Assembly: GCA_963705105.1 (NCBI GenBank)
Contig: CAVPIW010000008.1
Coordinates: 32,001 to 96,000 of the forward strand
Length of the DNA: 64,000 nucleotides
Origin: an uncultured Nitrospiraceae bacterium
GTDB taxonomy: Bacteria; Nitrospirota; Thermodesulfovibrionia; Thermodesulfovibrionales; Dissulfurispiraceae
Direction of reading: 5' to 3'
The position numbers and the translations under genes are program-made. Position 1 is the stretch's first letter. Every line of letters starts with the position of its first letter. A model generated the notes under the pieces. That model was not told the origin of the DNA. It saw nothing but the letters and a program-made list of their open reading frames with translations, and made no database searches. Shown in pieces: positions 16,288 through 17,715 of the stretch.

Positions 16288-16438
16288 ACTGCATCGCCAT
16301 CGGGCCGGATCATATTTTGATGACTCAATGACCAATGACTTGATGACTTAGATTAGACGGTGGCATCTTCACGCCGCTATTTCCCGGGATCTTTGTCAGC
16401 GACGAGGTTCATCGCCGGGGCCTGTTTGCCCCCGGGCC

Positions 16439-16467
16439 TTGACATTTCCCTGCCGATCTGGTAAAAA
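16439..16467 (+). promoter_or_regulatory. Sigma70 promoter of the aroF leader
   Basis: TTGACA-17 nt-TAAAAA with extended TG. Confidence 0.7.
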
Positions 16468-16473
16468 AGGAAC

Positions 16474-16557
16474 ATGATTCACGAAGGGAATATCTCCTTC
16501 GCCCTTGCCTTCTGGTACGGCTTCATTTTTCTGTCGTCTACCCCTGGCAAGGTTTGA
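16474..16557 (+). CDS. Attenuator leader peptide MIHEGNISFALAFWYGFIFLSSTPGKV
   Basis: 27 codons with F9, F13-W14-Y15, F17, F19, directly upstream of DAHP synthase. Confidence 0.8.
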   Translation: MIHEGNISFALAFWYGFIFLSSTPGKV

Positions 16558-16586
16558 ACGGAGAGTAAAAAAACCGAGCAACTGCG

Positions 16587-16623
16587 AAAGCCGAGGGTAG
16601 ACGGACGGGCCCCGGCTTTTTTT
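16587..16623 (+). terminator. Attenuator terminator of aroF
   Basis: AAAGCCGAGGG...CCCCGGC then T7; its 5' arm is also complementary to 16535-16548. Confidence 0.8.
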
Positions 16624-16695
16624 CGCATATGCCAATTGGAGAGGCCGGGTGCATAGCCCGGCCTCTCTCGTTTTTCGGACAATGAGGAGAAGAGC

Positions 16696-17715
16696 ATGAT
16701 CATCGTAATGAAGACAACGGCGACGAAACGGGAAAAGGAAGACGTGATCAGACGGATCAAAGAACTGGGGTATAAACCGCATGTCATACGCGGCACGACA
16801 CGGGATGTCATCGGCGCCGTCGGTGACGAGAGGGGCAAGGTCGTCCTCCAAACCATCGAATCGATGCACGGTGTCGAAAGCGTCGTGCCGATTCTCAAGC
16901 CCTATAAGCTTGCATCACGTGAAGTGCGGCGCGAAACGAGCATCGTGGAGATCACCAAGTCCGTTTCCATCGGCGGCAGGGAAATCATCGTTTTCGCAGG
17001 TCCCTGCGCCGTGGAGAGCGAGGGGCAGATCCTCGAAACGGCCAGGGCCGTGAAGGAGGCAGGCGCCCAGGTGTTCCGGGGCGGTGCTTACAAGCCGAGG
17101 ACGTCTCCGTACAGTTTCCAGGGGATGGGAGAGGAAGGGCTGAAGCTCCTCGCCAAGGCCCGCGAAGCGACGGGCATGCCTGTCATCACCGAAGTCGTCA
17201 ATCCGGAAACGGCGGAACTCGTGGCCGAGTATGCCGATGTTCTCCAGATCGGGACGAGGAACGCCCAGAACTTCGAACTCCTGAAACGCGTCGGCATGCT
17301 GAGAAAGCCCGTGCTCCTGAAACGGGGCATGTCCATGACCGTCCAGGAGTTGCTGATGAGCGCCGAGTATATCCTCAGCGAAGGCAACCAGTCGGTCATT
17401 CTCTGTGAACGGGGGATCAGGACCTTCGAGACGGCGACACGAAACACACTCGATCTTTCGGCGATCCCGGTCCTGAAGGAAAGGACCCACCTGCCCGTCG
17501 TCGTCGACCCCTCCCATGCGACGGGACATCACCGGTATGTGGCGCCCATGGCCTATGCCGCTGTCGCTGCAGGTGCGGACGGTCTCATGATCGAGGTGCA
17601 CCCCGATCCGGAACACGCCGCTTCGGACGGTCCCCAATCTTTGACGCCGAAGAATTTCGCAGAGGTGATGGCGAAACTGCGGTCCTTTGCGGAGGTGTCA
17701 GGCAGAAGCCTCTGA
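16696..17715 (+). CDS. aroF: DAHP synthase type I-beta with N-terminal regulatory domain
   Basis: [31 protein letters not shown] and DPSH motifs. Confidence 0.95.

Follow-up and report, generated by a model that had tools for sequence, protein, structure and literature searches.

Predicted ribosome-mediated attenuation of a DAHP synthase gene by a leader with adjacent Phe, Trp, and Tyr codons in Nitrospirota and Geobacterales

Introduction

The first step shared by the synthesis of Phe, Trp, and Tyr is catalyzed by DAHP synthase, and E. coli balances this common entry step with three isozymes and two repressors. In an uncultured Nitrospiraceae bacterium, the DAHP synthase gene aroF lies behind a short open reading frame (ORF) in which codons for all three amino acids stand side by side. 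Does this leader control aroF, and which of the three amino acids would it read? Single leaders that read several amino acids are found in enterobacteria (thrL and ilvL). Their his leader adds a relay helix to its series of alternative helices, and its last hairpin is the only terminator. The available part of one source names trpL and pheL as classical enterobacterial attenuators (PMC11802643).

The initial annotation of the locus proposed such an attenuator upstream of aroF, with a leaderless peptide whose stalled translation at any Phe, Trp, or Tyr codon would free segment 2 of the RNA, and with possible further control by a second hairpin; it suggested aligning the aroF upstream regions of relatives as a check. 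We followed up these proposals by computational analysis of a 64,000-nt stretch of DNA (contig CAVPIW010000008.1, positions 32,001 to 96,000), called the window below, and of aroF loci from related bacteria.

Results

Organization of the aroF locus

The features of the locus are collected in Table 1. The leader ORF, whose translation is MIHEGNISFALAFWYGFIFLSSTPGKV, contains F13-W14-Y15 and three further Phe residues, as stated in the initial annotation; these Phe residues are at positions 9, 17, and 19. The ORF lies 138 nt upstream of aroF. The TAAAAA of the −10 region ends 6 nt 5′ of the leader ATG, and transcription is predicted to start at or adjoining that ATG (16474). Ten RNA runs were considered, none of which contained half of the sequence words; the four compared with the window consist of contigs and place only short pieces over the leader. 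A consensus promoter scanner called no promoter at the window leader. Among 171 short ORFs of the same genome located 26 to 36 nt after TTGAC[AT], the window leader is alone in having five aromatic residues within nine codons, and an nhmmer search of the genome returned no further copy (next best E value, 0.23). Two candidate leaders from a background scan of the genome, Thr-rich and Leu-rich, were rejected, being located inside or away from unrelated genes. Upstream, the intergenic stretch 16316-16360 carries short tandem ATGAC-type repeats, a 13-mer of which occurs 42 times in the genome; the stretch thus belongs to an intergenic element present in many copies and has no relation to the leader.

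Table 1. Features of the aroF leader and gene in the window
Feature	Coordinates	Strand	Basis
−35 hexamer TTGACA	16439..16444	+	Sequence; TTGAC[AT] 29-33 nt 5′ of the leader ATG in 48/79 clade rows
−10 region, TG-extended, non-consensus; TAAAAA at 16462-67	16459..16467	+	Sequence
Leader ORF, 27 codons, probably leaderless	16474..16557	+	Sequence; homologous leaders in 76/79 clade rows
Aromatic codons (range includes F19), predicted effective: F9 16498, F13 16510, W14 16513, Y15 16516, F17 16522	16498..16530	+	Ribosome-mask folding; consensus FYFWYGFYF
F19 codon, predicted too late for an effective stall	16528	+	Ribosome-mask folding
Segment 1; 16503-09 pairs with 16546-52, 16514-21 with 16533-42	16503..16521	+	Free-leader fold; covariation
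Segment 2, partner of 1 or 3	16533..16552	+	Fold, covariation; almost no synonymous change in codons
Segment 3, antiterminator 2:3 or terminator 3:4	16587..16603	+	Fold, covariation
Segment 4 (complementary to segment 5 as well), with the U7 tract of terminator 1	16610..16623	+	Fold, covariation
Segment 5 (hairpin 2, 5′ arm), predicted to pair with segment 4 in the relay	16638..16650	+	Covariation
Segment 6 and imperfect U tail (CGTTTTT), hairpin 2	16656..16675	+	Terminator-like by scanner; covariation
Shine-Dalgarno-like AGGAGAAG of aroF	16685..16692	+	Sequence; conserved block in alignment
aroF, type I-beta DAHP synthase, N-terminal ferredoxin-like regulatory domain	16696..17715	+	NF006421 and TIGR01361 above cut-off; PF18152

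AroF is 339 residues long, and its closest natural solved structure is that of the T. maritima enzyme. Since the ORF 3′ of it is convergent, aroF is apparently monocistronic; the genes found there differ between relatives, and none looked aromatic-pathway-like by eye. At position 31 (codon 16786-16788), all 79 proteins of the AroF clade described below carry Ile, and the equivalent residue is Ser in the T. maritima enzyme and in operon-encoded paralogues of relatives. Ser at this position, as in the T. maritima enzyme, presumably helps to set Tyr specificity. Ile31 suggests an altered feedback inhibition of the AroF proteins encoded behind the leader, and a changed feedback site would explain why the clade's aroF paralogue needs transcriptional control. 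In the genome itself, PF00793 matched AroF and one KDO8P-synthase-like protein, and PF01474 had no match. The pheA-hisC operon stops at a contig end (contig C14, 316557-318261), exactly where relatives carry a second aroF. The claim that AroF is the only DAHP synthase of the genome was dropped as unsafe for this reason, and the tyrA and second aroF genes of that operon may simply be unassembled.

Conservation of the leader among relatives

The names attached to the nearest AroF hits point to Nitrospirota (Thermodesulfovibrionia) as the lineage of the window. A total of 210 aroF loci were gathered, and a FastTree phylogeny was built from 204 rows after removal of five duplicates and one short protein. 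The window AroF falls in a clade of 79 rows (local support, 97) made up of Thermodesulfovibrionia, i.e., relatives from its own order's lineage, together with Geobacteraceae/Geobacterales/Desulfuromonadales; these rows share kinship and are not independent, so that counts within the clade overstate the number of events. A full leader ORF with the consensus FYFWYGFYF was present in 76 of the 79 rows, the leader starts for the consensus and for display of the promoter block being picked by hand. Two of the remaining rows are cut by contig ends and retain a partial cluster, and the third (L116) has an internal deletion. In the 230 nt 5′ of aroF at L116, the −35 hexamer, an ATG, and strand 4 are kept and the aromatic codons and segments 2 and 3 are gone; the deletion may be natural or may stem from assembly.

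An automatic rule, requiring an ATG-initiated ORF with at least six aromatic residues in nine codons, was satisfied by 68 of the 77 clade rows with enough upstream DNA, compared to a mean of 0.2 in shuffled sequences. With a best score of five aromatic residues in nine codons, the window leader falls below this threshold and is among the poorer copies. Leader length ranges from 14 to 41 residues among relatives, with variable N- and C-terminal parts. A core DNA pattern of the leader matched 19 times in 251 genomes of the class, 16 times directly 5′ of aroF and three times elsewhere, versus four matches for the same pattern read backwards.

Outside the clade, 23 of 110 rows also satisfied the automatic rule (0.2 in shuffles), in Deltaproteobacteria, Planctomycetota, and others, one of which (L167) may be another kind of small gene. 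Aromatic-rich leaders with terminators were seen there 5′ of type I-beta aroF at L051, L069, L071, L124, L129, L137, L146, L173, L084, L090, L102, L105, L168, L187, L012, L016, L133, and L185; several share the two-hairpin layout. Short F/Y/W-rich ORFs also lie directly 5′ of aroF in three Methanosarcinales archaeon records (L092, L099, and L100) and at a similar metagenome locus (L143), and inspection of these four by eye found no classical G+C terminator.

Mutually exclusive helices upstream of aroF

The three pairings of a classical attenuator proposed in the initial annotation were all found in the window. Helix 1:2 proved longer than first described, with a second paired block (Table 1), and the 2:3 antiterminator (16535-48 with 16590-603) and the 3:4 terminator (16587-16623, U7) both covary among relatives. 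Terminator 1 has a bulged stem, a 10-nt loop, and a folding energy of about −11.8 kcal/mol; a strict consensus scanner left it unflagged in the window, and its tail has at least five U residues in 40 of 49 aligned leaders. Across 16470-16700, the window folds with a z score of −3.7, and none of 200 shuffled sequences folded as well.

The structure alignment comprised 49 leaders of the common layout, two divergent subgroups (27 rows) being left out. Helices of the terminated state were 86.5% paired, with two-sided changes at 21 of 40 pairs, a result reached in none of 500 shuffles (slid controls, 40 to 63%). For the antiterminated state, 83.9% pairing and two-sided changes at 14 of 29 pairs were obtained (0 to 8 of 500 shuffles), the 2:3 core varying so little that its covariation support comes from few cells. 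Applied to the whole alignment, RNAalifold recovered helices 2:3 and 5:6 only. The alignment suggested at the outset thus found the F/W/Y cluster, its frame, its distance from the promoter, and three covarying stems conserved in relatives.

Folding of the window RNA up to the first U tract gave helix 3:4 a probability of 0.80 when the leader was free of ribosomes. A ribosome mask placed at codons 7 to 17 shifted the balance to helix 2:3 (0.91 to 0.99, with 3:4 at 0.04 or less), and a mask anywhere from codon 19 to the stop codon restored 3:4 (1.0). With footprints of 10, 13, and 16 nt, F13, W14, and Y15 were effective throughout, F17 was lost at the largest footprint, and F19 was outside the effective range in all. 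The proposal that a stall at any aromatic codon would free segment 2 consequently holds in this model for the F-W-Y triad and fails for F19. Equilibrium folding takes no account of the chance for 2:3 to form ahead of the synthesis of strand 4. Among the 49 homologues it let 2:3 beat 3:4 in 2 leaders without a ribosome, in 0 with one at the stop codon, in 26 with one at the anchor Trp (W), in 32 at W+3, and in 12 at W+4, leaving 23 of 49 with no preference for 2:3 at W.

The region upstream of aroF thus carries an ORF rich in codons for the amino acids that the pathway makes, mutually exclusive, conserved 1:2, 2:3, and 3:4 helices, and an intrinsic terminator before the gene; in the folding model, the control codons are placed such that a stalled ribosome leaves segment 2 free and one that has reached the stop codon occupies it. 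It is highly probable that the leader is a ribosome-mediated transcription attenuator. In the model that we favor, transcription would begin at the leader ATG. When amino acids are plentiful, the ribosome would reach segment 2, helix 3:4 would form, and RNA polymerase would stop at 16617-23; when no ribosome is present, helix 1:2 would form, followed by 3:4 and the same stop. A ribosome stalled at about codons 7 to 17 (F9, F13, W14, Y15, or F17) would block segment 1 and allow 2:3 to form instead. We assign a probability of roughly 0.8 to the model as a whole, i.e., an attenuator that switches aroF on when charged aromatic tRNAs are short.

Amino acids read by the leader

In the window copy, codons for Phe, Trp, and Tyr all lie within the range predicted to be effective (F9, F13, W14, Y15, and F17). 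Over positions W−3 to W+3 of the 76 leaders, 51 contain all three residues, 17 contain Phe and Trp without Tyr, and 7 lack Trp. The best-conserved Tyr (position +4, 44 of 76) stands at the edge of the effective range, where 2:3 wins in 12 of 49 leaders, and is replaced by Ile in the window copy. Relative to the consensus, the window copy has lost an F-Y pair upstream and a Tyr downstream, and it keeps its pairing in a shifted register. The triad that the window copy retains, with a single Trp and a single Tyr codon beside F13, fits three-way sensing.

The same attenuator could nevertheless act effectively as a sensor of Phe, or perhaps of Phe and Trp, with pauses at Tyr and Trp codons too short to matter and these codons kept mainly for the U/G-rich pairing of segment 1. 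Phe is the commonest aromatic codon between W−3 and W+3 (217 Phe, 73 Trp, and 76 Tyr), the residue following the anchor Trp is Phe in 31 leaders, Tyr in 22, Cys in 12, and Arg in 5, and 17 leaders have no Tyr in this interval. Moreover, according to the available part of its description, the aroR leader of Corynebacterium glutamicum, with F-Y-F and one Tyr, shows a response to Phe but none to Tyr (PMC11802643); by analogy, the single Trp and Tyr codons of the window copy may stall the ribosome too briefly. Against a Phe-only reading, Trp is kept at the anchor in 68 of 76 leaders, including 8 of 11 in a subgroup with a different RNA layout, and Tyr occurs somewhere in 70 of 76, with both of its codons used, also in an unpaired loop. 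We regard a mainly Phe-responsive leader as a substantial minority possibility. Overall, sensing of Phe is very likely and sensing of Trp fairly likely, and for sensing of all three in the window organism the odds are about even. The initial suggestion that one leader could sense all three thus stands as plausible, the codons being present, and is weakened by the 17 leaders without Tyr and by the Corynebacterium precedent.

The second hairpin

Polymerases that escape terminator 1 would meet hairpin 5:6 as a second stop. This hairpin (16638-16668) has 13 pairs, its helix shows the strongest covariation of all, and a U-rich tail follows it in 35 of 49 leaders, or in 43 when the offset is relaxed, making it a probable second terminator. 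Because an unconditional second terminator would undo antitermination, the coupling of hairpin 2 to the switch was tested. In the window, strand 4 (16610-20) is complementary to 16639-49, in the 5′ arm of hairpin 2, with a duplex energy of −16.4 kcal/mol. The comparison among relatives started from 94 leaders, of which 61 had both hairpins by an automatic rule and 8 of these were dropped (hairpin miscalled or unrelated); the lineages compared extend beyond the 79-row clade to deltaproteobacterial leaders. For 22 of 25 distinct types, the cognate 4:5 duplex was stronger than non-cognate duplexes, and over 15 tree lineages the median z was −4.1. Eight lineages with different strand-4 types gave an exact median p of 0.0065 (worst, 0.048), against 0.70 for a reversed-arm control.

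Alternatively, attenuation may take place at terminator 1 alone, with hairpin 2 as an independent 5′ stabilizing or processing hairpin or a constitutive dampener, whose likeness to segment 3 would come from duplication or G+C content. At equilibrium, 5:6 wins in every state of the window RNA, and the tail of hairpin 2 is imperfect in the window copy. Compared to 58 terminator-like arms of the same genome, the window 4:5 duplex ranks at the 5th percentile, and 10 of the 25 types rank at or above the 10th; furthermore, 11 Thermodesulfovibrio-like leaders have one hairpin only. Independence is harder to reconcile with the covariation of segments 4 and 5 across distant lineages. It also sits less well with the decay of the first U tract in 9 of 49 leaders, most of which keep a U-rich tail behind hairpin 2, a pattern that would be expected where this hairpin can serve as the working terminator. 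We hold an independent hairpin 2 to be possible, at odds of about one in three.

For the coupled reading, in which the freed segment 4 would capture segment 5 as it emerges, delaying hairpin 2 and letting polymerase enter aroF, partial transcripts are informative. In the stalled state, 4:5 formed in 43 of 49 leaders (window, 0.99 to 1.0); it also formed with a ribosome placed on the stop codon in 21 of 49 (window, 0.01 to 0.88 depending on length), and often in the free state. Given this and the equilibrium preference for 5:6, the relay would have to be kinetic. As a his-type relay, with a freed strand 4 and a further terminator arm, the arrangement is favored by covariation, and equilibrium folding separates the states poorly. 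We lean toward a functional 4:5 relay. Hairpin 2, for which the initial annotation had allowed additional control, now appears coupled to the same switch through 4:5 covariation, which strengthens that suggestion; it is probably wired in such that one stall would open two terminators.

A conserved segment 7 (16670..16678, + strand) is complementary to approximately 16585-16591, just 5′ of segment 3, and is weak in the window copy. This helix (3a:7) would enclose both hairpins, about 18 nt 5′ of the aroF start; it gave a duplex z of −5.5, but its column test was not above shuffles (35 to 175 of 500).

Reading of the leader as codons

In a blind test of the 79 clade rows, 29 had no TTGAC[AT] in range and 2 had no ATG at 26 to 36 nt from it; the 48 ATGs found, at 29 to 33 nt after TTGAC[AT], were all in frame with the aromatic cluster. 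No Shine-Dalgarno motif was evident by eye 5′ of these ATGs. Frame-matched ATGs at a conserved promoter distance together with the absent Shine-Dalgarno motif support a leaderless start, in line with the leaderless look initially noted from the 6-nt spacing. Length changes between the ATG and the Trp codon are whole codons. In the Phe/Tyr columns, both synonymous codons are used (45/21, 17/14, and 25/19) and Phe and Tyr exchange, and the codons of segment 2 hardly vary (CCG, 36 of 36; GCC, 27 of 28). This is the pattern expected of a cluster under codon-level selection followed by a segment 2 under RNA-level selection. All 49 leaders keep the T that opens TGG, although the model leaves this T unpaired. 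The GG of the Trp codon also pairs in helix 1:2, so its conservation may be partly structural.

The 11-row Thermodesulfovibrio-like subgroup has a shorter leader (14 to 18 codons), mostly an AGGAG-like site, and one long terminator. A tRNA-Pro gene was found 5′ of the leader in four of five loci scanned, tRNA-Pro(cgg) at L009, L010, L201, and L204. The leader of this subgroup would be the same sensor rewired.

Could the peptide itself be the sensor or effector, as a TnaC-like nascent-chain arrest peptide binding a free aromatic metabolite or as a small membrane peptide? It has a conserved hydrophobic motif (FxFWxGFYF), and leader peptides with roles in trans exist, according to the portions of the literature available. 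However, its residues exchange freely (F, Y, W, and C), its ends and its length vary, the stretch behind the cluster is constant down to its codons, as RNA, and a ligand-induced stall would turn a biosynthetic gene on when its product is plentiful; we consider this reading very unlikely. Still less credible is a non-coding switch in the RNA, such as a riboswitch, a T-box, or a protein-binding leader, with an incidental ORF, for which one might cite the first record of the Geobacter element as a short RNA element (available text of PMC2700814) and the double use of U-rich codons as pairing strands, since the frame is kept in all 48 blind tests, ATG-Trp length changes come in whole codons, the ORF gains a Shine-Dalgarno site in leaders that lie behind a tRNA gene and have a changed promoter context, and no Rfam covariance model reached its gathering score on the leader (best, 20.6 bits versus 45; eight weak matches, with no T-box, Phe or Trp leader, or riboswitch among them). 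A likeness to the DUF2815 motif was rejected (9 nt; 17.7 versus 41.2 bits in Rfam).

Discussion

The proposed leader follows the 1:2/2:3/3:4 logic of trpL and pheL, would be multivalent like thr and ilv, and would form a chain of helices like his. It differs from enterobacterial attenuators in placing three aromatic amino acids at a common first step and in its predicted leaderless start, and from the his leader in carrying U tracts on both the middle and the last hairpins rather than on the last only.

The primary study of the C. glutamicum aroR-aroF attenuator is reportedly that of Neshat et al. 2014. The parts available of two sources describe aroR-aroF as an established leader attenuator 5′ of a DAHP synthase gene (PMC11802643 and PMC4046766). 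As in aroR, where stalling raises transcription, the window leader has adjacent aromatic codons 5′ of such a gene. As far as aroR is described there, with F-Y-F, no Trp, and a response to Phe only, the window leader is set apart by its F-W-Y in place of F-Y-F (family consensus, FYFWYGFYF), by its phylum, and by two predicted coupled hairpins. The uORFC-13-1 motif of Acholeplasma, a predicted upstream ORF and terminator, is found only 5′ of aroF according to the available part of Brewer et al. 2021 (PMC8632094). The motif, with 24 sequences (Acholeplasma and environmental), combines a ribosome-binding site with a U run that encodes at least one Phe, and the same part of the paper describes no Trp/Tyr cluster or relay. 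Novelty relative to the textbook leaders for one amino acid cited in the initial annotation is reduced, aroF leader peptides having been published for Corynebacterium and Acholeplasma.

In Geobacteraceae, Gmet_R0069 (= GSUR082) was recorded as a predicted short RNA element 5′ of aroG-2 (Aklujkar et al. 2009, PMC2700814, available text). Since the named Geobacteraceae fall in the 79-row clade, this is very probably the same element as the window leader. The main text of PMC2700814 gives no ORF, structure, or mechanism for Gmet_R0069, and the words "leader" and "attenuat" are absent from it. Attenuator peptides translated from leaderless transcripts have been described in Streptomyces lividans (PMC8079986); these are actinobacterial, and none is listed 5′ of a DAHP synthase gene in the available part of that report. 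The available parts of PMC2659441 and PMC2965389 contain nothing on an aroF F/W/Y leader element. Within the full-text literature searched, main texts mostly from outside the subscription journals, no F/W/Y leader was described for Nitrospirota or Geobacterales. What is new here is the combination of adjacent Phe, Trp, and Tyr codons, a predicted leaderless start, and a predicted two-terminator relay on the classical attenuator plan.

In its fullest form, the proposal would be a leaderless mini-gene acting as a three-input OR gate for shortage of Phe-, Trp-, or Tyr-tRNA, with a six-segment relay (1:2, 3:4, and 5:6 versus 2:3 and 4:5) that opens two tandem terminators per stall. The DAHP synthase under its control, in two phyla, would be a spare one whose feedback site is altered, and related leaders would stand 5′ of type I-beta aroF genes of other bacteria and possibly of archaea. 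We put this complete picture forward tentatively, as one that may well fail in some part. If it is true, these anaerobes would tune the shared aromatic entry step by an RNA of about 220 nt that reads three charged tRNAs, in a switch sharpened by two terminators chained to one stall. It would provide a mechanism for the Geobacter element recorded without explanation in 2009, would extend leader-peptide attenuation to Nitrospirota, for which no report was found in the literature searched, and would offer a compact biosensor for aromatic amino acid supply.
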